Source of the DNA: a virus
Taxonomy: Duplodnaviria > Heunggongvirae > Uroviricota > Caudoviricetes
Strand: one strand, 5' to 3'
IMG/VR virus record: IMGVR_UViG_2526164634_000013
Location: 1-9,208 of that record
DNA: 9,208 nt
Shown in pieces: positions 1 through 9,208 of the stretch. The translations under genes and the position numbers were made by a program. Below the pieces are notes generated by a model. That model searched no databases. It was not told the DNA's origin and saw only the letters and a program-made list of their open reading frames with translations. Each line of letters opens with the position of its first letter. Within the stretch, counting starts at the first letter, position 1.

Positions 1-1
1 C

Positions 2-172
2 ACCATTGGCGATAAAAGCATTTACCTGTATGACCTGCGCCGCATGGATGAAATCATGGAGGCTCTTGATAATCGTTCGTCGATGGATTGGTGTGTTGCT
101 GTCCATGATATGAATGCCGGATTTGATGAAAGGATTTTGTTCCCCTCATCAGTTGAAAGCACTGCGGGTTAA
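2..172 (+). CDS. 3' end of an upstream gene (partial, function unknown)
   Basis: Reading frame 2 is open from the window edge to TAA at 170-172 (…SVESTAG*). No start codon in window and no recognisable motif. The stop overlaps the AAGGAG Shine-Dalgarno of the next gene. Confidence 0.3.
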   Translation, partial: TIGDKSIYLYDLRRMDEIMEALDNRSSMDWCVAVHDMNAGFDERILFPSSVESTAG

Positions 173-182
173 GGAGTAACAC

Positions 183-1412
183 ATGACCACTATTACCAAA
201 GAACGTATTGAATTGTTCATTAAAAATCCGCTTGAAAACGGGCTTACCCGTGGTGAACAAATGGAACTGGCACGGATTGCGCTGGCATCGCTGGAAGCAG
301 ATCCAGTTAAACGAGTTAACTCAGATCAGATGCGCCGAGTCTGCTTAGAAGCTAATCGCCATTTAGATAAATATGACGCGATGGCGAAAGAGGTAAATAA
401 GTTGCTTGGACGCATCGCCCCGCCAGCGCCGGTAGTGCCGGAAGAAGCAACTCCGGAAAACGTAGAAATGCTCTCTGGCTATGTTTCCACGTACAAATTA
501 ACCGATAGCGAGCGCGATATTGCTACCGAAATATGGAACGCCTGCCGCGCCGCCATGCTTCAGTCCGGAAACTTTCGGGAAAACAAGAATTCGTCAACCA
601 ATAATTTTCGGGAAATCGCGGAAACGTCAACCAACTATCCGGCAATTCCTAGTGAGGTGTTGTCCGCAATCCTGAAGGTTGCCAGGATTCGTGCCGATTT
701 CGATGATTTTGACGGTGACAGGCGAGGTATCGGTGATTGTCTGGATGAGGCTGAGCAAGAGCTTATCGTTACCATTAACAAATATGCCAGTCAGTTGGCA
801 GCAGAACCGATAGCGACTAATGACGTTCGAGAGCAGCAGACAGCCGTTCCGCCAGTTCCGGAAATACAGGATGATGTCGCGCAAGCAATTGAAAATCTCA
901 AGCAGAAGTTAGTGGAATGCAATCGCTATAACTACTGCGCAGATGCAGTTAAAGGCGTAGAGGATGCCTGCCACGCTGCCATGCTTCAGGGTAGCCAACC
1001 TGTAAGCCAAACTTACAAGTTGCCAGTTAATACACCTTGCCAAGATGCGCCAGCCCATATCTGGCTGCAAACGGCTGGAGTATGGCCAGAAGATGGCGAG
1101 TTAAGCGAATTAACGTGGTGCAGCCACAATCAGCACCATGATGACACGCTATATGTTCGAGCTGACCTTGTGAATGGCAACTCTCCGGTAACTCCGGATG
1201 GTTGGATAAGCTGTAGTGAGCGAATGCCGGATACCAAAACAGCCGTTCTTGTTGCCAGGGAGTTTGACAGGAAAGGTGACTGGCGAATGAAATGGGCGAC
1301 TTACATCCCGGGTCATCCTGACGCTAATGATGGGTGGATAATACCTGGTGCGTCGTGGATACCATCACACTGGATGCCTCTACCAGAACCGCCGCAGGAG
1401 GTGCGCCAATGA
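183..1412 (+). CDS. Prophage protein with C-terminal DUF551-like domain; N-terminal ~300 aa of unknown function
   Basis: 409-aa ORF with ATG at 183 preceded by AAGGAG (171-176). The C-terminus (…WISCSERMPD…WIIPGASWIPSHWMPLPEPPQ) matches, from memory, the W-rich DUF551 signature ending in HWMPLPEPP seen in enterobacterial prophage proteins. No database search was run. Confidence 0.75.
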   Translation: MTTITKERIELFIKNPLENGLTRGEQMELARIALASLEADPVKRVNSDQMRRVCLEANRHLDKYDAMAKEVNKLLGRIAPPAPVVPEEATPENVEMLSGYVSTYKLTDSERDIATEIWNACRAAMLQSGNFRENKNSSTNNFREIAETSTNYPAIPSEVLSAILKVARIRADFDDFDGDRRGIGDCLDEAEQELIVTINKYASQLAAEPIATNDVREQQTAVPPVPEIQDDVAQAIENLKQKLVECNRYNYCADAVKGVEDACHAAMLQGSQPVSQTYKLPVNTPCQDAPAHIWLQTAGVWPEDGELSELTWCSHNQHHDDTLYVRADLVNGNSPVTPDGWISCSERMPDTKTAVLVAREFDRKGDWRMKWATYIPGHPDANDGWIIPGASWIPSHWMPLPEPPQEVRQ

Positions 1413-1492
1413 ACTGGCCTGAAGCATTTGCAATTACAGGCGTTGCTATGGCTATAGCTTTTTTAGTATATGTTATTTGTCGGTGGGGGTAA
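1409..1492 (+). CDS. Micro-ORF, 27-aa hydrophobic peptide (MNWPEAFAITGVAMAIAFLVYVICRWG), putative single-pass membrane peptide
   Basis: ATG at 1409 overlaps the TGA of the upstream gene (ATGA coupling). AGGAGG at 1396-1401 sits 7 nt upstream. A hydrophobic stretch of about 20 residues is followed by RW. Too short for the supplied ORF track; translated by hand. Confidence 0.4.
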   Translation: MNWPEAFAITGVAMAIAFLVYVICRWG

Positions 1493-1527
1493 AAACGTTC
1501 GCCGGGATTAACACCAAAGGAGGGAAT

Positions 1528-1632
1528 ATGTCGGATGATATATCACTGGCAATGGAAGGTGCGCTGGCTGTTGTTGCTGTTGTGGGCGTTTACTGCCTGG
1601 TTGTGTTTTTGATGGATCGACTAGGGAACTGA
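1528..1632 (+). CDS. Micro-ORF, 34-aa hydrophobic peptide (MSDDISLAMEGALAVVAVVGVYCLVVFLMDRLGN), putative single-pass membrane peptide
   Basis: ATG at 1528 with AAGGAGGG at 1517-1524. Acidic N-terminus followed by a ~20-residue hydrophobic helix. Not in the ORF track; translated by hand. Confidence 0.45.
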   Translation: MSDDISLAMEGALAVVAVVGVYCLVVFLMDRLGN

Positions 1633-1640
1633 ATTCATTA

Positions 1641-1662
1641 CGATATGGGAATTCCCATATCG
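1641..1662. repeat. Perfect 22-bp palindrome CGATATGGGAATTCCCATATCG
   Basis: The sequence equals its own reverse complement and contains a central GAATTC. It lies 9 nt after the stop of the 34-aa micro-ORF and about 35 bp upstream of the predicted hok promoter. No U-tract follows, so it is not a classical intrinsic terminator. Confidence 0.6.
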
Positions 1663-1673
1663 GGTAAAAACGG

Positions 1674-1702
1674 TTTGCGGTAAAGCGAGAGTTAAGTAGA
1701 AT
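1674..1702 (+). promoter_or_regulatory. Candidate sigma70 promoter of the hok transcript (-35 TTTGCG/TTGCGG, -10 TAGAAT at 1697-1702)
   Basis: TAGAAT matches the -10 consensus at 5 of 6 positions, with a 16-17 bp spacer to a weak TTG-containing -35. The predicted +1 near 1707-1709 coincides with the 5' arm of the long-range complementarity to the mRNA 3' end. Confidence 0.4.
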
Positions 1703-1878
1703 TGCAGCGGGTGCTTGAGGCTATCTGTCTCAGGCATGAACACCAAAAGGCAGATAGAGAAAAGCCCCAGTTAACATTATGCGTCCTGCAAGACGCTTAA
1801 CATTAATCTGAGGCCCAATCTATGTCTCACAAATGTAGGTTAGCCTCTTACGTGCCGAAAGGCAAGGAGAAGCAGGCT

Positions 1879-2034
1879 ATGAAGCAGCAAAAGGCGATGT
1901 TAATCGCCCTGATCGTCATCTGTTTAACCGTCATAGTGACGGCACTGGTAACGAGGAAAGACCTCTGCGAGGTACGAATCCGAACCGGCCAGACGGAGGT
2001 CGCTGTCTTCACAGCTTACGAACCTGAGGAGTAA
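1879..2034 (+). CDS. hokD: Hok/Gef-family type I toxin (51 aa, small membrane-depolarising peptide)
   Basis: The product MKQQKAMLIALIVICLTVIVTALVTRKDLCEVRIRTGQTEVAVFTAYEPEE has the Hok/Gef hallmark: N-terminal TM helix and conserved TRKDLCEV…R…G…EVA.F.AYE. From memory it matches E. coli HokD/RelF very closely. The family call is secure; the exact paralog name is by recall only. An in-frame upstream ATG at 1822 with GAGG SD gives the 70-aa track ORF. Confidence 0.85.
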   Translation: MKQQKAMLIALIVICLTVIVTALVTRKDLCEVRIRTGQTEVAVFTAYEPEE

Positions 2035-2082
2035 GAGACCAGGCGGGGGAGAATCCCTCGCCACCTCTGATGTGTCAGGCAT

Positions 2083-2097
2083 CCTCAACGCACCCGC
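2083..2097 (+). promoter_or_regulatory. 3' fold-back element of hok mRNA (fbi-like), complementary to the predicted 5' end at 1707-1720
   Basis: 1707-1720 (GCGGGTGCTTGAGG) pairs antiparallel with 2083-2097 (CCTCAACGCACCCGC): 8 bp plus 6 bp with one bulged C. This is the architecture described for hok mRNAs, where the 3' end pairs with the 5' translational activator region. Confidence 0.5.
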
Positions 2098-2103
2098 ACT
2101 TAA

Positions 2104-2128
2104 CCCGCTTCGGCGGGTTTTGTTTTTT
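2104..2128 (+). terminator. Rho-independent terminator ending the hok transcript
   Basis: Hairpin CCGC-TTCG-GCGG (2105-2116) followed by GTTTTGTTTTTT. Confidence 0.75.
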
Positions 2129-2200
2129 CCTGGCATTCTGGTTTACAATTCGCACACCAGCCTGAACAACTGGCACCTGCTGCGCCAGCAGAGACAACCG

Positions 2201-2479
2201 ATGGCGCACGATACCAAATTACACAATTCTGATGATTCTGCCGTCTTTGCCAGCAGGCACGGGCGGCGTTCCCGCACTTTCAAATCTGACTGGTTCCAGC
2301 ATCCCCCATGCACTGAAGAACAGGCCGAGTGGCTAATTCAGTGCTACCGCAGACACGGATACGAGATTAAGAAAGCCCTCAGCCTCGATTATCGTCACTG
2401 GATAATCTCCGTCAGGCTTCCTTACTCCGAACGCCCACCGCGTCCGTCCCGCACATTCCAGCAACGCATCTGGAGGTAA
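2201..2479 (+). CDS. Small basic hypothetical protein (92 aa); Rem-like by position only
   Basis: ORF with ATG at 2201 chosen because the track start at 2072 would overlap the hok terminator. The SD is weak (GAGA). The TAA stop at 2477-2479 sits 1 nt before the GTG start of the next gene. Sits where rem sits between hokD and ydfU in the Qin prophage, as I recall that order. Confidence 0.45.
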   Translation: MAHDTKLHNSDDSAVFASRHGRRSRTFKSDWFQHPPCTEEQAEWLIQCYRRHGYEIKKALSLDYRHWIISVRLPYSERPPRPSRTFQQRIWR

Positions 2480-2480
2480 C

Positions 2481-3527
2481 GTGCGGGTATTACTTCGACC
2501 TGTTCTGGTACCGGAACTCGGGCTGGTGATCGTTAAGCCGGGCCGTGAATCCATGCCGGTATTCCACAATACCCGGGTACTGGTGGAGCCGGAACCGAAA
2601 AGCATGCGTAATCTGTCGTCCGGGGTCGTTCCTGCCGTTCGCCAGCCGCTGGCGGAGGATAAATCATTACTGCCATTTTTCAGCGACGAACGAGTGATTC
2701 GTGCTGCTGGTGGCGCTGGCGCATTGTCTGACTGGTTACTGCGCCATGTTAAATCCTGCCAGTGGCCACACGGCGATTATCACCACAGTGAAACCGTCAT
2801 TCACCGTTATGGTACCGGCGCAATGGTGTTGTGCTGGCACTGCGACAACCAGCTGCGCGACCAGACCTCCGAATCACTCGGGCAACTTGCTCACCAAAAC
2901 CTGTCTGCATGGATGATTGACGTCATACGCCATGCAATGAATGGCTCGCAGGAACGGGAATTATCGCTGGCTGAATTATCCTGGTGGGCGGTCCGCAATC
3001 AGGTGGCGGACGCGCTACCGGAAGCGGTATTACGTCGTTCGCTGGGGTTGCGTGCGGAAAAAATCCGCTCAATGTACCGTGAAAGCGACATCGTACCGGG
3101 AGAGCAGACCGCCACCAGCATACTGAAGCAGCGCACAAAAAATCTTGCGCCGCTGCCTCACGCCCACCAGCAAAACCCGCCACAGGAAGAGACGGTGGTC
3201 AGCATTGCCGTTGATCCTGAGTCTCCGGAATCTTTCATGAAACGACCTAAACGTCGCCGCTGGGTTAACGAGAAATACACACGCTGGGTGAAGACACAGC
3301 CGTGTGCGTGTTGTGGTAAGCCAGCCGACGATCCCCATCACCTGATTGGTCATGGTCAGGGCGGAATGGGGACAAAATCTCACGATATTTTCACGCTACC
3401 GCTGTGTCGGGAGCATCACAACGAGCTTCATGCGGATCCTCTGGCGTTCGAAGAAAAGTATGCTTCTCAGGTTGATTTAATTTTTCGTTTTCTTGATCAC
3501 GCCTTTGCAACTGGCGTGCTTGGGTAA
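2481..3527 (+). CDS. ydfU: DUF968 (YdfU-like) prophage protein with C-terminal Cys/His HNH-like motif
   Basis: 348-aa ORF with GTG start at 2481 and GGAGG at 2472-2476. The C-terminal segment CACCGKPADDPHHLIGHGQGG…LPLCREHHNELH resembles a zinc-binding HNH-type module. The length matches the roughly 349-aa YdfU of Qin as I recall it; the family call is by recall. Confidence 0.75.
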   Translation: MRVLLRPVLVPELGLVIVKPGRESMPVFHNTRVLVEPEPKSMRNLSSGVVPAVRQPLAEDKSLLPFFSDERVIRAAGGAGALSDWLLRHVKSCQWPHGDYHHSETVIHRYGTGAMVLCWHCDNQLRDQTSESLGQLAHQNLSAWMIDVIRHAMNGSQERELSLAELSWWAVRNQVADALPEAVLRRSLGLRAEKIRSMYRESDIVPGEQTATSILKQRTKNLAPLPHAHQQNPPQEETVVSIAVDPESPESFMKRPKRRRWVNEKYTRWVKTQPCACCGKPADDPHHLIGHGQGGMGTKSHDIFTLPLCREHHNELHADPLAFEEKYASQVDLIFRFLDHAFATGVLG

Positions 3528-3539
3528 AAGAGGTGACTG

Positions 3540-3899
3540 ATGCTCATAGATTTGGTTTTACCTTACCCGCCGACGGTGAACACTTACTGGCGACGCCGTG
3601 GCAGCACATATTTTATCTCGGAGGAGGGAAAGCGTTATCGCCGTGATGTGGCGCTTATTGTTCGCCAGCAGCAACTGAAATTAAACCTGTCCGGAAGGCC
3701 GGCAATAGAAATTATTGCAGAGCCACCGGATAAGCGCCGTCGTGACCTGGACAATATCCTGAAGGCACCACTGGATGTACTGACGCATGCGGGGCTGCTC
3801 ATAGACGACGAGCAGTTTGATGAAATTAATATTGTGCGCGGTCAGCTTGTTCCTGGTGGGCGGTTGGGGATAAAAATCACAGAACTGGAGTATGCATGA
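3540..3899 (+). CDS. rusA: RusA-family Holliday junction resolvase
   Basis: 119-aa product with PPxxNxYWRRRG…RRRDLDN…DDxQ…GGRL, matching the RusA catalytic acidic-residue pattern. SD AGAGG upstream. The stop overlaps the next start (ATGA at 3896-3899). Confidence 0.88.
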   Translation: MLIDLVLPYPPTVNTYWRRRGSTYFISEEGKRYRRDVALIVRQQQLKLNLSGRPAIEIIAEPPDKRRRDLDNILKAPLDVLTHAGLLIDDEQFDEINIVRGQLVPGGRLGIKITELEYA

Positions 3900-4585
3900 A
3901 TAACCAGTATTTACAGTTTGTTCGTGAGCAACTCATGATTGCCACCGCCGATTTGAGTGGATCAACAAAAGGGCAGCTTGAGGCCTGGCAGGAGAATGCC
4001 ATGTTTGATACAGGGCGTTACAGGCGTAAAAAAATCCGGTACCGCGATGAAGTGACTGGAAAAATGATAACGCGGGATAATCCACCAATCCCGGGAAAGC
4101 AATCGCTGGCGAAGGGGGCGTCAATTCCTCTCGTCAGTCCGGTTGAGTTTTTGACATCATCGTGGCGGCGGGCTGTTCTGTCTCTTGAAGAACATCATAA
4201 AGCCTGGTTGTTGTGGTGTTACAGCGGGAGTATTTGTTGGGAATATCAGATCGCGATAACGCAGTGGGTGTGGAATGAATTTAAAACCCGGTACGGCACC
4301 AGAAAAATTGCAGGGAAAACGCAGGAGCGCGCGAAGAAGTTGATCTGGCTGGCGGCACAGGATGTCAGAGGATGGATTACCGGGTGTGAGGTCTACCAGA
4401 GACAGGAGCTTGCCAGACTGTGTGGAGTTAAGCCTGATAACTGGAGCCATAATTATGCGAACTACTGGCGTGAGATGTGCGATATTTTTAAGAGTCTCGA
4501 TAGAGAATCTGTGATTTGCACCGTGAAAATAAGAGCGCAACAAAAAGCGACTTTTTCACGACGAGATATTGCAAAAGTCAATTAA
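3896..4585 (+). CDS. Putative late-gene antiterminator Q (long Q-like family, QuuQ/YdfT-type)
   Basis: 229-aa ORF translationally coupled to rusA, with GGAG 5 nt upstream. It is the last gene before a promoter-like AT-rich stretch and a strong terminator, which is the canonical Q position in lambdoid phages. The family is inferred mainly from synteny; I cannot confirm by motif. Confidence 0.55.
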   Translation: MNNQYLQFVREQLMIATADLSGSTKGQLEAWQENAMFDTGRYRRKKIRYRDEVTGKMITRDNPPIPGKQSLAKGASIPLVSPVEFLTSSWRRAVLSLEEHHKAWLLWCYSGSICWEYQIAITQWVWNEFKTRYGTRKIAGKTQERAKKLIWLAAQDVRGWITGCEVYQRQELARLCGVKPDNWSHNYANYWREMCDIFKSLDRESVICTVKIRAQQKATFSRRDIAKVN

Positions 4586-4644
4586 ATAGCGTACGTTTCG
4601 TATAAATCTGATATTTTGCCGATTTTGTACGCGATGGCAAAGTA

Positions 4645-4675
4645 AGAAAAAAACTGCCGTCAGGCGGTTTTTTTT
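4645..4675 (+). terminator. Strong intrinsic terminator downstream of Q (tR'-like), flanked by A-run and T-run
   Basis: AGAAAAAAA, then stem CTGCC-GTCA-GGCGG (one G-U pair), then TTTTTTTT (4668-4675). It is about 60 nt downstream of a TATAAAT box (4601-4607). Confidence 0.7.
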
Positions 4676-4797
4676 ATGCCCAAAATCGCGTCAGTACAGT
4701 AAACACGCTGGTGGTTGCGAATACGGGTCTTTCAGCTTGCTGGCTTTTTCGACAAGAGTTATTGGTATGTCACGTTAACCGGAAAAAGGAAAAAGAC

Positions 4798-4995
4798 ATG
4801 CTAAAACAGCAGGATATGACAGAAACCGCCAGAGTGGTGTTTAATGAATTAAGCGTTACCGAACCGGCGACAGTCGGGGAGATAGCGCAGAATACTTACC
4901 TTTCACGCGAACGCTGCCAGTTAATACTGACTCAGCTGGTTATGGCGGGTCTGGCAGACTATCAGTTCGGTTGTTACAGACGCCTTCCGCAGTGA
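4798..4995 (+). CDS. Small helix-turn-helix DNA-binding protein (65 aa)
   Basis: ATG at 4798 with AGGA 8-11 nt upstream. The segment ATVGEIAQNTYLSRERCQLILTQLVMAGLA has an HTH-like pattern. The track start at 4711 is an in-frame extension lacking an SD. Confidence 0.55.
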   Translation: MLKQQDMTETARVVFNELSVTEPATVGEIAQNTYLSRERCQLILTQLVMAGLADYQFGCYRRLPQ

Positions 4996-5006
4996 AGGCT
5001 TTTTTA
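4982..5006 (+). terminator. Intrinsic terminator overlapping the stop codon of the HTH gene
   Basis: Stem GCCTTC (4982-4987) / GAAGGC (4994-4999) with loop CGCAGT, followed by TTTTTTATTT. Confidence 0.6.
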
Positions 5007-5023
5007 TTTGTGGTAAATGGGCG

Positions 5024-5052
5024 GCTGGTGGGTGTTAGGGGCACCCACCAGC
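5024..5052 (+). repeat. Perfect 11-bp-stem hairpin (GCTGGTGGGTG / CACCCACCAGC, 7-nt loop) in the methyltransferase leader
   Basis: Exact inverted repeat with no following U-tract. A second 7-bp-stem hairpin lies at 5095-5113 (CTGCTTT-GCGCA-AAAGCAG). Confidence 0.6.
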
Positions 5053-5145
5053 CATCTGCTCATGCGTTGGGTTCACAAGCAAACCTCAGGCCCACTGCTT
5101 TGCGCAAAAGCAGAATGAGCCTATCAGAGACAGGCTTAATGATCC

Positions 5146-6195
5146 ATGCTTAATACTGTAAAAATATCCAGTTGTGAGTTAATCAACGCCGACTGCCTGG
5201 AATTTATCCGGTCGTTACCCGAAAATTCTGTTGACCTGATAGTCACGGACCCGCCGTACTTTAAAGTGAAGCCTGAGGGCTGGGATAACCAGTGGAAGGG
5301 CGACGATGATTACCTGAAATGGCTGGACCAGTGTCTGGCGCAGTTCTGGCGGGTGCTGAAACCTGCCGGAAGTCTTTACCTGTTCTGTGGTCATCGCCTG
5401 GCATCTGATATCGAAATCATGATGCGTGAACGCTTCAGTGTGCTGAACCATATTATCTGGGCGAAGCCGTCCGGACGCTGGAACGGGTGCAACAAGGAAA
5501 GCCTGCGGGCGTATTTCCCCGCCACAGAGCGCATTCTGTTCGCGGAACATTATCAGGGGCCGTATCGCCCGAAAGATGCCGGGTATGAGGCGAAGGGCAG
5601 GGCACTGAAACAGCATGTGATGGCCCCGCTGATTTCTTACTTTCGTGATGCGCGCGCTGCCCTGGGGATAACGGCAAAACAGATAGTGGATGCCACAGGA
5701 AAGAAAAACATGGTGTCACACTGGTTCAGTGCCAGTCAGTGGCAGCTACCGAACGAAAGCGATTATCTGAAATTACAGTCGCTGTTTGCCCGGGTGGCAG
5801 AAGAGAAACATCAGCGGGGAGAACTGGAAAAGTCCCATTACCAACTGGTCAGCACATACAGTGAGCTGAACCGGCAGTATACGGAACTGCAGAGTGAATA
5901 TAAGCATCTGCGGCGGTATTTTGGCGTGACGGCGCAGGTGCCGTACACGGATGTGTGGACGCATAAACCGGTGCAGTACTATCCAGGGAAACATCCGTGC
6001 GAAAAACCGGCAGAAATGCTGCAGCAGATAATCAGCGCAAGTAGTCGTCCTGGTGATCTGGTTGCGGATTTTTTCATGGGGTCGGGTTCAACGGTAAAAG
6101 CGGCGATGGCACTGGGGCGTCGTGCGATTGGCGTTGAACTGGAGACCGGACGTTTTGAGCAGACAGTCAGGGAAGTTCAGGATTTAATCGTTTGA
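5146..6195 (+). CDS. Orphan DNA methyltransferase, beta class (N6-adenine/N4-cytosine family, PF01555-like)
   Basis: 349-aa product with catalytic DPPY (residues 35-38) preceding the AdoMet-binding motif HPCEKP…GDLVADFFMGSGST (residues 283-316). That motif order defines the beta class, and DPPY rather than SPPY favours N6-adenine. No obvious SD before the ATG. No restriction endonuclease ORF in the window. Confidence 0.88.
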   Translation: MLNTVKISSCELINADCLEFIRSLPENSVDLIVTDPPYFKVKPEGWDNQWKGDDDYLKWLDQCLAQFWRVLKPAGSLYLFCGHRLASDIEIMMRERFSVLNHIIWAKPSGRWNGCNKESLRAYFPATERILFAEHYQGPYRPKDAGYEAKGRALKQHVMAPLISYFRDARAALGITAKQIVDATGKKNMVSHWFSASQWQLPNESDYLKLQSLFARVAEEKHQRGELEKSHYQLVSTYSELNRQYTELQSEYKHLRRYFGVTAQVPYTDVWTHKPVQYYPGKHPCEKPAEMLQQIISASSRPGDLVADFFMGSGSTVKAAMALGRRAIGVELETGRFEQTVREVQDLIV

Positions 6196-6244
6196 AACGG
6201 ATGAGATTGCAGAATTAATTACGCACCATTATTATTCTGCTCCC

Positions 6245-6320
6245 GGCCCTTTAGCTCAGTGGTGAGAGCGAGCGACTCATAATCGCCAGGTCGCTGGTTC
6301 AAATCCAGCAAGGGCCACCA
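6245..6320 (+). tRNA. ileZ: tRNA-Ile2 (anticodon CAU, lysidine type), ileZ-like
   Basis: Hand-folded cloverleaf: acceptor GGCCCTT/AAGGGCC, D-stem GCTC/GAGC, anticodon loop CTCATAA, T-loop TTCAAAT, encoded CCA. Closely resembles E. coli tRNA-Ile2 as recalled. Confidence 0.8.
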
Positions 6321-6327
6321 TCACATA

Positions 6328-6404
6328 CCGCCATTAGCTCATCAGGAAAGAGCGCCAGCCTTCGAAGCTGGCTGCGCGGAGTTCGGGTCCCCGAAGGCGG
6401 TCCA
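6328..6404 (+). tRNA. argN: tRNA-Arg (anticodon UCG as read from sequence), argN-like; atypical stems
   Basis: Perfect anticodon stem CCAGC/GCTGG with loop CTTCGAA, D-stem GCTC/GAGC, encoded CCA. However there is one A-A mismatch in the acceptor stem, one A-C mismatch in the T-stem, and the T-loop is TTCGGGT (G at position 58). Confidence 0.55.
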
Positions 6405-6417
6405 TTATCTGTATCCT

Positions 6418-6494
6418 GCGTTGTTAGCTCAGCCGGACAGAGCAATTGCCTTCTAAGTAATCGGTCACTGGTTCGAATCCAGTACAACGCGCCA
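6418..6494 (+). tRNA. argO: tRNA-Arg (anticodon UCU), argO-like
   Basis: Acceptor GCGTTGT/ACAACGC, D-stem GCTC/GAGC, anticodon stem ATTGC/GTAAT with loop CTTCTAA, T-arm ACTGG-TTCGAAT-CCAGT, encoded CCA. Confidence 0.82.
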
Positions 6495-6508
6495 CACTTA
6501 TTTTCCCT

Positions 6509-6533
6509 GGCTCGCTTTTGCGGGCCTTTTTTT
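6509..6533 (+). terminator. Intrinsic terminator immediately after the tRNA cluster
   Basis: Stem GGCTCGC / GCGGGCC (one U-G pair) with loop TTTT, followed by TTTTTTT. Confidence 0.7.
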
Positions 6534-6730
6534 AAATGTCTCACAATTCAGACGGTTGACAGTTGTCTGTTTTGCGGGGAGTTTGTTAAAAGAAACTGGC
6601 ATGGTGAATCCCCCTGTGCGGAGGGGCAATCAGCGAGTAGGTATATGGGATAATCGCGGATTCAGGTGCTGGTACTGAATTCACCGGGAGGCACCCGGCA
6701 CCATGCAATGGCACATAGCGCCACTCTCCA

Positions 6731-6755
6731 GCCCCTCTCCGGAGGGGCTTTCTTA
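6731..6755 (+). terminator. GC-rich hairpin with T-rich tail (terminator-like) in the tRNA-to-esterase interval
   Basis: Stem GCCCCTC / GAGGGGC with loop TCCG, followed by TTTCTTA. Shares the core CGGAGGGGC with a second hairpin at 6611-6626. Confidence 0.4.
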
Positions 6756-6760
6756 TGGAC

Positions 6761-6788
6761 AAAAAAATCCCGCGCTGGGAGACGCGGG
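6761..6788 (-). terminator. Minus-strand intrinsic terminator-like element (hairpin CCCGCG/CGCGGG followed on the minus strand by U7)
   Basis: On the + strand this reads AAAAAAAT, then CCCGCG, an 8-nt loop, then CGCGGG. On the minus strand that is hairpin plus T-run. It sits back-to-back with the + strand hairpin at 6731-6755. Confidence 0.35.
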
Positions 6789-6982
6789 CGGCAAGGAATA
6801 AACATCAAAACGTGAAGTAATATTTCAGCTGGCGAATAATATCCGACAGTAATCACTCTGCGCAATAGCGCGGCCTTTTTCGTATTGCGGACTGTTGTCT
6901 CTCTTCTGCCATTGTCCTGTAACTTCCGGACTTCAGCCCGCTCCTCATTTTACTCACAATATTATCCCGGCCGGGAGGATTC

Positions 6983-8836
6983 ATGGCATTTAAACACTAT
7001 GATGTTGTCAGGGCGGCGTCGCCGTCAGACCTTGCGGAAAAGCTGACACATAAACTGAAAGAGGGCTGGCAGCCGTTTGGTAGTCCGGTGGCCATAACCC
7101 CTTATACCCTGATGCAGGCGATTGCAGCAGAAGGTGATGTGGTCGTCAGTGGTGCAACTGAGCCGGAGTGGTACTACGTCATCGTACTGGCCGGGCAGTC
7201 CAATGCCATGGCTTACGGTGAAGGGCTTCCGCTTCCGGATTCATACGATGCGCCGGATCCGCGCATTAAACAGCTGGCGCGCCGCAGTACAGTGACGCCG
7301 GGTGGGGCTGCCTGCAGATATAACGATATTATTCCGGCCGACCACTGCCTGCATGATGTGCAGGATATGAGTACGCTGAATCATCCGAAGGCAGACCTGA
7401 GCAAAGGGCAGTACGGCTGTGTCGGCCAGGGCTTACATATTGCCAAAAAACTGCTTCCGTATATCCCGAATAACGCGGGGATCCTGCTGGTACCATGCTG
7501 TCGTGGTGGTTCGGCATTCACCCAGGGCGCGGAGGGGACATTCAGTGCGGACACGGGGGCCAGCCAGGATTCGGCACGCTGGGGTGTGGGTAAACCGTTA
7601 TATCAGGACCTGATTGCGCGCACTAAAGCTGCATTACAGAAGAACCCGAAAAATGTGTTGCTGGCGGTGTGCTGGATGCAGGGAGAGTTTGACATGAGCG
7701 CCGCCACCTACGCACAGCAACCTGCGCTGTTTACAGCCATGCTGAAGCAGTTTCGTGCTGACCTCACTGTGTTTAACGCGCAGTGTCATGGTGGCAGTGC
7801 TGCAGATGTGCCGTGGATTTGTGGTGACACGACGTATTACTGGAAAAATACATACGCTACCCAGTACGACACCGTGTACGGCGGGTATAAAAACAGGGAG
7901 AGTGAGGGCGTTTATTTTGTGCCCTTCATGACAGACGGTAACGGCGTCAATACCGCCACTAACGCACCGGCAGAAGATCCGGATATTCCGGCATCAGGAT
8001 ATTACGGTGCGGCATCGAGAACGAATGGAAACCAGGTATCATCAAACCGCCCGACACATTTCAGTTCATGGGCGCGCAGGAGCATTATTCCGGATCGTAT
8101 GGCAACCGCTATTCTGAACGCAGCCGGGCGCACCTCAGCCTTCATCAGTGGTAAGGCACCGGAAATCAAACCCTCGCCCGGCGTCGACACGCCATCGGGG
8201 CCGTCTGAAGATGCATCCGTACGCACAATCTCCCTGTTGCCGACAGCCGGAGAGGCTGCTGCGCAGGGCTGGACCATTAAGGACGGCGGAATTCAGTTGT
8301 CGGGTGGTGTATTTAAGATCGCCAAGCAGAGCAATAAAGCCTGGTCCCTGACGCGCCCGGTGGGTGACGCAGTCTCCCTGCTGACACGGGGTGGCAGACT
8401 GAGCTGTAAGTTTCGACTGTCAGGCGCACTGACCAACAACCAGTTCGGTCTGGGAATTTATCTGTATACCGATGTAGCGTTACCTGACGTCGTGGCGATG
8501 ACCGGGACTGGTAACCCGTTCCTGATGTCGTTCTTCACCCAGACCACAGACGGCAAACTGAATCTGATGCATCACAAGAAAGCAGGAAACACAAAGTTGG
8601 GCGAGTTCGGGAATTACAGTAACGACTGGCAGACGCTGGAGCTGGTGTTCACCGCCGGCCAGTGCCACGGTTACTCCGAAACTGAATGGAGTGGCTGGCC
8701 CGGCATTCCAGGTCATAAAGACAGTCTGACAGTGGGACTAAATGCACTGACGCTGACGGATATTACCAAAAATGCAACGTATGGCGTTGAGATAGAAAGT
8801 CTGGTGCTGGAGATAAATGCACCGGCATCATCATAA
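6983..8836 (+). CDS. nanS-p: Prophage sialate O-acetylesterase NanS-p-like (SGNH/SASA hydrolase with N-terminal DUF1737-like region)
   Basis: 617-aa product. The motif [16 protein letters not shown] carries the GQSN catalytic-serine signature of SASA-type esterases (NanS/YjhS family). The N-terminal [21 protein letters not shown]… resembles the short domain that heads prophage NanS-p proteins. GGGAGG SD at 6973-6978. Confidence 0.8.
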
Positions 8837-8921
8837 AAAGTGAGCCAGTCAAGTGGAAGGTATCGTTAAACTCACCGGTAGTGTCAGTGGGTCGTCTGAG
8901 ACGCCTGCATGAGTTATCAGA

Positions 8922-8950
8922 GCCATCAGTACTTAACTGGTGGCTTTTTT
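8922..8950 (+). terminator. Intrinsic terminator between the esterase gene and the holin gene
   Basis: Stem GCCATCAG / CTGGTGGC (one G-U pair) with 7-nt loop TACTTAA, followed by TTTTTTATT. Confidence 0.6.
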
Positions 8951-8985
8951 ATTGTTGTCAGCTTCCGGATAACGGGAGACGGGGT

Positions 8986-9201
8986 ATGTACCAGATGGAA
9001 AAAATCACAACAGGTGTGTCATACACCACGTCAGCGGTGGGAACGGGCTACTGGTTCCTGCAGTTGCTGGACAGGGTTTCCCCGTCTCAGTGGGCGGCAA
9101 TAGGCGTGCTGGGGAGTCTGCTGTTTGGGCTGCTGACATATCTGACTAACCTGTATTTCAAAATCAGAGAGGACCGTCGTAAGGCGGCGCGGGGAGAGTA
9201 A
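8986..9201 (+). CDS. S: S21-like pinholin (class II holin) with dual-start motif
   Basis: 71-aa product [71 protein letters not shown]. From memory it is near-identical over the C-terminal two thirds to the phage 21 holin (…[15 protein letters not shown]…[22 protein letters not shown]). Two TM segments and Met1/Met4 dual starts. The track ORF from 8881 is an unsupported N-terminal extension. A new ATG at 9206 starts the next gene. Confidence 0.85.
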
Positions 9202-9208
9202 AGCGATG

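Follow-up and report, generated by a model that had tools for sequence, protein, structure and literature searches.

Five credible intrinsic terminators and the mosaic modules they close in the Q-to-S region of a stx-less lambdoid prophage

The 9,208-nucleotide (nt) stretch of DNA analysed here (IMG/VR virus record IMGVR_UViG_2526164634_000013, positions 1 to 9,208), referred to below as the window, is the Q-to-S region of a stx-less lambdoid Escherichia coli prophage that resembles Shiga toxin (Stx) phages and carries a Q gene of the phage 82 family. By megablast, its relatives are Stx-converting and related lambdoid phages together with E. coli prophages, including a prophage of strain CE10 (94% identity to the window) and prophage PP6 of enteropathogenic E. 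coli (EPEC) E2348/69 (97% identity across window 6614-9201). No stx genes were found in the window. All of its protein and tRNA genes lie on the plus strand, and between Q and the first lysis gene this strand carries five hairpins followed by U-tracts, T1 to T5, which are the subject of this analysis.

Layout of the late region and terminator calls

The features of the region are listed below in window coordinates, with the score of each hairpin under the terminator discriminant that is defined after the list.

3896..4585, plus strand: Q antiterminator gene of the phage 82 (Q82) family, 229 amino acids (aa) (Pfam PF06323, E 8.6e-83)
4569..4617, plus strand: candidate late promoter pR' and pause element, proposed from conservation and the layout of EPEC PP6
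4647..4675, plus strand: T1, tR'-like intrinsic terminator of the pR' leader (discriminant +28)
4798..4995, plus strand: orf65, a small conserved phage open reading frame of 65 aa (phrog_331, unknown function, E 1.4e-37)
4982..5005, plus strand: T2, intrinsic terminator overlapping the orf65 stop (discriminant +17)
5146..6195, plus strand: DNA N6/N4 methyltransferase gene, cargo (PF01555, E 7.8e-45; PHROG DNA methyltransferase families)
6207..6235, plus strand: candidate tRNA promoter (TTGCAG, 17-bp spacer, TATTAT), homologous to pT of phage 933W
6245..6494, plus strand: three tRNA genes, CAU, Arg-UCG and Arg-UCU (ARAGORN, Rfam tRNA, 933W ileZ-argN-argO annotation)
6509..6533, plus strand: T3, intrinsic terminator closing the tRNA cassette (discriminant +39)
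6570..6760, plus strand: small RNA (sRNA) gene of the STnc100/PasD family (Rfam RF02076, 139.2 bits against a gathering score of 47)
6730..6757, plus strand: T4, terminator hairpin of this sRNA, with tail UUCUUAUG (discriminant +25.5)
6761..6942, minus strand: convergent sRNA gene, EcOnc08/21/42-like (about 98% identity to an Hfq-bound EPEC RNA)
6858..6873, plus strand: weak extra hairpin with tail CCUUUUUCG, antisense to the minus-strand sRNA
6983..8836, plus strand: NanS-p-type sialate O-acetylesterase gene (Pfam DUF1737, SASA and DUF6645)
8919..8950, plus strand: T5, conserved hairpin followed by six Ts, about 40 nt upstream of the holin start (discriminant +30)
8986..9201, plus strand: S21-type (class II) holin gene (PF04971, E 9e-33; RefSeq 'class II holin family protein')

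A preliminary description of this DNA had pointed to five plus-strand hairpin/U-tract motifs and had suggested terminator prediction with free-energy scoring as a check. All five were confirmed, each about 3 nt or less from where it had placed them, and each consists of a G+C-rich hairpin directly 5' of a U-rich tract. Their terminator potential was scored with a scripted discriminant of the d'Aubenton-Carafa type, in which hairpin free energy per length is combined with a weighted T-tail and a score above zero counts as a pass; all five pass, with scores ranging from +17 to +39. Exactly six sites pass on the plus strand, T1-T5 plus a hok terminator at 2104-2117, all six of them intergenic, and one site passes on the minus strand. 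Since the same discriminant called only 0.125 and 0.175 sites per strand in 40 dinucleotide shuffles, with a maximum of one, T1-T5 are real rather than chance hairpins. A looser hairpin/U-tract scan gave 19 sites, against 9.0 +/- 3.5 expected from shuffles. Compensatory substitutions in relatives were demonstrated for T1 and T5, while the stems of T2, T3 and T4 are conserved among relatives with too few changes to show covariation. Judged from sequence, T1-T5 make credible intrinsic terminators for a late region under Q control, on whose coding strand they all lie. Each of the five closes a separate mosaic module, and mosaic junctions match terminators at 4664-4680, directly past 6533 and at 8917.

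Five hairpins and the modules they close

A Q of recognised family is encoded directly upstream of a candidate late promoter. The protein is 65.9% identical to the Q of phage 82 (X92588, a record that stops at the Q stop codon) and falls in PF06323, the Q82 family (PMC9388147), for which we found no solved structure. The proposed pR' would have its -35 element TTGCAA at 4569-4574, a 17-bp spacer, its -10 element TACGTT at 4592-4597 and a start near A4604. Shortly beyond, TGATATTTTGC at 4609-4619 is invariant in 23 variants and lies within a highly conserved segment. Lying at roughly +6 to +14 relative to the proposed start, this candidate -10-like, sigma70-dependent pause element would be consistent with the phage 82 pause, which has been located at +25 (PMC4914094). 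The EPEC PP6 counterpart of the proposed pR' reads TTGCAA-17-TATATT, and in published data from RNA interaction by ligation and sequencing (RIL-seq) the leftmost coordinate of the corresponding RNA, 1442553, falls exactly 7 nt past the -10 TATATT. Because the RIL-seq fragments begin 7 nt past this proposed -10 element, the PP6 pR' leader appears to be made, and to be Hfq-associated, in the lysogen.

T1 lies about 70 nt downstream of the pR'-like promoter and comprises an A7 run (4647-4653), the stem CTGCC/GGCGG (4654-4667) and a U8 tract (4668-4675), with an extended fold of -18.4 kcal/mol (z -5.6). To compare it among relatives, the segment past the Q stop was aligned from 80 IMG/VR loci whose Q proteins are 81-99% identical. 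The stem varies by paired substitutions (CTGCC/GGCGG, CCACC/GGTGG, CCCGC/GCGGG and CCTGTC/GGCAGG), so that, in the 23 distinct sequences, pairing is kept in 95% of cells while five stem pairs are changed on both sides; the covariation score was reached by none of 500 shuffles, and slid controls collapse. A hairpin and T-run occupy the same place behind a different Q type (PPyecE_EH1910; compare 933W), and in prophages with different Q types homology to the window begins within the T1 hairpin or T-run. T1 is the tR' equivalent, ending a late-promoter leader of about 70 nt.

Further RNA features overlap this segment. In EPEC PP6, the RNA from the spacer between Q and the tRNA genes (NC_011601 1442553-1442672) takes part in 29 published RIL-seq chimeras with the core sRNA MgrR, and an MgrR site is predicted directly downstream of the T1-equivalent hairpin, in a segment homologous to window ~4676-4720; this hints that a read-through leader RNA may interact with MgrR. 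On the minus strand, 4641-4716 gives a sub-threshold match to Rfam STnc370 (46.7 bits against a gathering score of 54; E 7e-6 in a local search), which uses the T1 hairpin in reverse reading. As T1 is flanked by A7 and U8, it could work in both directions, though its U-G pair turns into a C-A mismatch when the minus strand is read. On the plus strand, 4595-4674 matches isrK weakly (18.5 bits).

The next module consists of orf65, T2 and the methyltransferase gene. The preliminary description had read orf65 as a helix-turn-helix (HTH) gene, a reading that we rejected: the protein has no Pfam match, its only family is the PHROG of unknown function, no HTH signature was detected, and RefSeq annotates it as a hypothetical protein. 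T2 consists of the stem GCCTTC/GAAGGC (4982-4999) followed by six Ts (5000-5005), with the TGA stop of orf65 at the junction of loop and 3' arm. Across 16 variants the stem is unchanged in most and the loop occurs in four versions, a pattern that would be consistent with a selected hairpin. Downstream, the spacer before the methyltransferase (5000-5150) is unusually structured (-63.4 kcal/mol, z -4.1), with a 14-bp stem at ~5021-5051 and a second long hairpin at ~5085-5127, neither with a U-tract. The whole block (~4680-6207) is a discrete cassette that is missing from EPEC PP6; there, the tRNA promoter comes straight after Q, the leader and T1. In 933W, only about 100 nt of the methyltransferase 3' end are kept (window 6094-6195).

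The tRNA genes had been described as insulated in the lysogen, which overlooks a candidate promoter of their own: in the 933W record (AF125520), the position homologous to 6207-6235 bears the annotation 'pT; putative tRNA promoter', and it is at 6207 that homology to the tRNA module of EPEC PP6 begins. T3 lies at the other end, with a stem GGCTCGC/GCGGGCC (6509-6526), seven Ts (6527-6533) and a fold of -13.8 kcal/mol (z -4.1). It is identical to a 933W hairpin annotated as 'possible rho-independent terminator upstream of the stx genes', and mosaic breakpoints fall directly past its T-run. Because this hairpin is annotated in 933W and pT is homologous to 6207-6235, T3 is the end of an autonomous tRNA cassette; in toxin phages the same hairpin is the last barrier ahead of stx2. 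The first tRNA (6245-6320) is called Met, with anticodon CAT, by ARAGORN, and its homologues in 933W, Sakai and the RefSeq records of CE10 and E2348/69 are annotated as ileZ or tRNA-Ile (a reader of AUA).

The interval between T3 and the esterase (6540-6980), previously taken to be empty, holds two sRNA genes, and the one at 6942-6761, on the minus strand, also means that not all genes of the window are co-oriented. The plus-strand gene at 6570-6760 matches the STnc100 model over its full length (model positions 1-206 of 206; E 1.8e-31). T4, with the stem AGCCCCTC/GAGGGGCT at 6730-6749 and a fold of -18 kcal/mol, is the terminal stem of the Rfam STnc100 consensus structure and is kept in three different flank contexts, and it is probably the Hfq-binding 3' end of this STnc100-family sRNA. 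According to a 2026 preprint, STnc100 is related to the PasD prophage sRNAs, located directly upstream of a sialate esterase gene. The STnc100/PasD family is strongly expressed in lysogens, and in uninduced EPEC the PasD2 RNA of prophage PP2 is abundant (BaseMean 11017; PMC8550237). In CE10 (retrieved locus 3741-4360, compared with window 6540-6760) there are two tandem STnc100-like copies, the second more diverged, and this second copy explains the ~490 extra bases of the CE10 prophage.

The minus-strand gene corresponds to the EPEC RNA E2348C_1409.E2348C_1408.IGR (NC_011601 1444797-1444978, minus strand), which has homologues EcOnc08/21/42 in enterohaemorrhagic E. coli. It ends in a terminator of its own (stem 6788-6769, seven Ts at 6767-6761, -13.4 kcal/mol), and the esterase start codon falls within a promoter-like site at 6989-6961, also on the minus strand. 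As this gene opposes the late genes, late transcription must cross it antisense. The extra plus-strand hairpin at 6858-6873, which the preliminary description had not listed, folds at -9.1 kcal/mol (z -1.7) with a negative discriminant and is doubtful as a terminator.

The last cargo gene, the esterase, is annotated as yjhS or 9-O-acetyl-N-acetylneuraminic acid deacetylase in related phages. It is followed by T5 (stem GCCATCAG/CTGGTGGC at 8922-8944, six Ts at 8945-8950; -17 kcal/mol, z -5.1) and then by the holin gene, which has a Met1/Met4 dual start and is the first gene of the lysis cassette. For comparison we collected the 120-nt segments that precede S21-type holin genes, using 80 IMG/VR loci and the reference phages. 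This yielded 35 distinct sequences with several unrelated upstream genes, nearly all of which have a hairpin ending about 40 nt before the ATG. The stem changes in pairs (GCCATCAG/CTGGTGGC, GACCATCGG/CCGGTGGTC, GGCCGCCAG/CTGGTGGTC); among 22 distinct sequences 94% of cells pair and five pairs are changed on both sides, a covariation score that none of 500 shuffles reached. For most Stx phages, homology to the window sets in at 8917, which is the foot of the T5 hairpin. As a promoter scan flagged nothing promoter-like from T5 to the holin, transcription must enter the lysis genes from upstream.

Several candidates were set aside. T5 is not the terminator of the EPEC sRNA PasA or PasC: EPEC PasA lies on the minus strand (NC_011601 743415-743499), and the 149-nt spacer of the window has no match to the 447-nt spacer of EPEC PP2. 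The Qin prophage of K-12, for which 3'-end maps have been published, was rejected as an experimental proxy: neither its segment downstream of Q nor that upstream of essQ is homologous to the window, and the T5 hairpin is missing from them. At the holin ribosome site (8962-8978), the fold of an sdi-like hairpin does not surpass that of shuffled sequence (z -0.07). No RNA feature at the T5 equivalent is listed in the EPEC supplementary tables, and terminator annotation is absent from the H-19B record. Directly past the esterase stop, a weak minus-strand hairpin with TTTTTAT (8839-8876, discriminant negative) is possibly the remnant of a PasA/PasC-like minus-strand element of longer spacers.

Upstream of Q, the window carries the following genes, including a complete hok/sok-type toxin-antisense locus (1709-2119) with a strong intrinsic terminator downstream.

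183-1412, plus strand: DUF551 protein gene
1709-2034, plus strand: hok/sok locus (Rfam sok, 121 bits; Pfam HOK_GEF)
1879-2034, within the hok/sok locus: Hok/Gef peptide
2104-2117, plus strand: hok terminator, the sixth plus-strand terminator of the window
2481-3527, plus strand: DUF968 gene
3540-3899, plus strand: RusA gene

Proposed insulation in the lysogen and its alternatives

The reading that we favour, with a probability of about 0.72, is that these are five genuine terminators, each closing a different mosaic module, which stop transcription in the lysogen and are read through by Q-modified polymerase; the promoter position, termination in vivo and Q-dependent read-through are parts of this reading that we infer. 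In the lysogen, a constitutive pR' transcript would end at T1, giving the leader of about 70 nt, and T2, which ends orf65, would act as a second barrier in series. Polymerases from pR' or from the tRNA and sRNA promoters would be halted at T1-T5, and because of this the methyltransferase, the esterase and above all the lethal lysis cassette would, in this proposal, receive very little transcription. Upon induction, Q would load onto a polymerase paused directly downstream of pR', which would then become terminator-resistant and cross about 4.4 kb and all of the barriers to reach the lysis genes. If each module ends in a terminator, only Q-modified polymerase would therefore reach the lysis genes.

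Insulation in the lysogen with read-through by Q is the established logic of lambdoid late operons, and for the methyltransferase, esterase and lysis genes the observations that follow support it indirectly. It does not fit the tRNAs and sRNAs, which are self-contained units. In the window, T1 lies shortly downstream of the candidate pR', and the lysis genes lie downstream without a promoter-like site after T5. For orf65, the methyltransferase and the esterase the search gave no promoter, and these genes seem to rely on read-through from pR'. Publications on related phages agree: in lysogens, transcription from pR' is constitutive and stops at tR', which Term-seq supports (PMC7547250), and nanS-p rises by 1-2.4 logs upon mitomycin C induction in related Stx phages (PMC10462455). 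In uninduced EPEC, counts fall from esterase to holin both in PP6, where both are very low over the 97%-identical segment (BaseMean 19.8 and 0.39; PMC8550237 table S2), and in PP2 (102 and 3.5; PMC8550237), although these counts are low and not normalised for length.

Besides this weakness of the EPEC counts, several observations weigh against the insulation model. The promoter scan did not flag the proposed pR', whose -10 element TACGTT is poor. T2 is the weakest hairpin of the five (-8.9 kcal/mol, z -2.2), with no compensatory changes and a few weakened variants. The tail of T4, UUCUUAU, is an interrupted U-tract. The U-tract of T5 is degenerate (CCTCTTGTTG) in several lineages that keep the hairpin, which suggests that the hairpin may have another or an additional role, and because the tract ranges from seven Ts to CCTCTTGTTG, terminator strength probably differs among lineages. 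Finally, RIL-seq fragments from EPEC PP6 reach about 48 nt beyond the U-tract equivalent to that of T1, so that T1 is probably leaky rather than absolute, and the stable pR' RNA of Sp5/933W has its 3' end at +258 (PMC7547250), which corresponds to the second annotated 933W terminator, downstream of a T1-like first hairpin. This 3' end, that of the sRNA StxS, was placed by counting +258 from pR' on the 933W annotation, as Sakai coordinates differ by genome version. Since the PP6 RNA overruns its T1 equivalent and the Sp5/933W RNA ends at the second terminator, two serial terminators behind pR' seem to be the rule, with T2 seemingly the second one in the window.

An alternative that shares much of this evidence sees the hairpins first of all as 3' ends that belong to sRNAs and to independently acquired cargo units ('morons'), serving as stable Hfq-binding ends and module borders, with insulation as a by-product. 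T4 does belong to an sRNA gene, T3 ends a promoter-bearing tRNA cassette, the T1 leader is Hfq-associated in a related prophage, such leaders act as sRNAs (as StxS does), and homology breakpoints fall at terminators. This account is compatible with the insulation model, but as a replacement for it we regard it as unlikely, since it does not extend readily to T5: there is no known plus-strand sRNA before this hairpin, EPEC PasA/PasC being encoded on the minus strand in a non-homologous spacer, and T5 is conserved specifically ahead of the holin, whichever gene lies upstream. That conservation regardless of upstream context suggests that protection of the lysis cassette is itself selected. T5 might instead act mainly after transcription, on the holin mRNA or the upstream mRNA, for instance as a stabilising 3' hairpin following processing or by tuning S translation. 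Its covarying stem, its constant spacing of about 40 nt to the S start codon and a U-tract that ranges from seven Ts to CCTCTTGTTG or ACTTGTTG in some lineages, with a negative discriminant in such lineages, would all suit this role; yet most variants have a canonical run of five to seven Ts and a positive discriminant (+30 in the window), and the PP6 counts fall from esterase to holin, which makes a mainly post-transcriptional T5 quite improbable.

That the five motifs are functionless chance hairpins beside T-runs could be argued from the permissive scan, which finds 9.0 +/- 3.5 sites even in shuffled sequence. The strict discriminant, with six sites observed against about 0.1 per strand, all intergenic and on the coding strand, argues otherwise, as do the covariation of T1 and T5 and the match of T3 and T4 to annotated or modelled elements, and the shuffle test and the covariation together effectively refute the idea. 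Beyond the insulation model, we tentatively raise the possibility, ourselves somewhat doubtful of it, that T5 is a previously unannotated, structurally conserved 'safety' element, found before S21-type holin genes in many lambdoid prophages, that would shield the lysis cassette from cargo read-through in lysogens, with lineage-specific U-tract strength tuning its leakiness, or with a second, post-transcriptional role. If this were true, T5 together with T1-T4 would mean that lysis depends strictly on a single Q-modified polymerase that gets past at least five terminators and across a convergent sRNA gene. The architecture is already largely annotated in 933W, Rfam and the recent sRNA literature and the mechanism is not new; the covarying hairpin ahead of S21-type holins, a possible barrier against self-lysis of the lysogen when cargo is transcribed, is the only, and modestly, new item. 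What the window adds is a clean annotated example of a Stx-like Q-to-S region built from a leader RNA, a tRNA cassette, two convergent sRNAs and an esterase.

Relation to known late regions

With lambdoid late control as known from the lambda 6S RNA and from pR' of phage 82, the window shares a Q gene followed by a conserved promoter-like segment, a -10-like element and a covarying hairpin with a U8 tract, with the lysis genes downstream on the same strand. In lambda, S lies close behind tR', whereas here about 4.3 kb of cargo, with four more terminators, separate tR' from the holin. Morons are autonomous promoter-gene-terminator units inserted in lambdoid late regions. The tRNA cassette, from pT to T3, and the two sRNA genes resemble them in being self-contained and terminator-bounded, with mosaic junctions at their borders, while orf65, the methyltransferase and the esterase differ in having no detected promoter in the window.

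Like PasD, the STnc100-family sRNA lies directly upstream of the esterase and ends in a terminal hairpin, here T4; it differs in its interrupted U-tract tail and in being present as one copy, as compared with two in tandem in CE10. StxS is an Hfq-binding sRNA derived from the pR'-tR' leader of Stx phages (PMC7547250). The likeness lies in a constitutive late promoter whose transcript ends just downstream in the lysogen, and in the Hfq-associated leader of a related Q82-type prophage. StxS, however, is 258 nt long and processed to 74 nt, as against a predicted leader of about 70 nt in the window. Because BLAST found no match between the window and the pR'-tR' segment of 933W (933W locus positions 880-1170), the relation is one of functional analogy only.

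The closest overall layout is that of the Q-stx2 region of 933W (AF125520), which shares pR', terminators ahead of the tRNAs, pT, ileZ-argN-argO and a following terminator; its record also annotates qut and two 'possible rho-independent terminators upstream of the tRNA genes'. As in the window, a hairpin of the T5 class precedes S in 933W, where it is unannotated. Unlike the window, 933W has a different Q type and leader and lacks orf65, and it carries stx2AB where the window has the STnc100-like sRNA, so that known sRNA genes fill the place in which toxin phages have stx.

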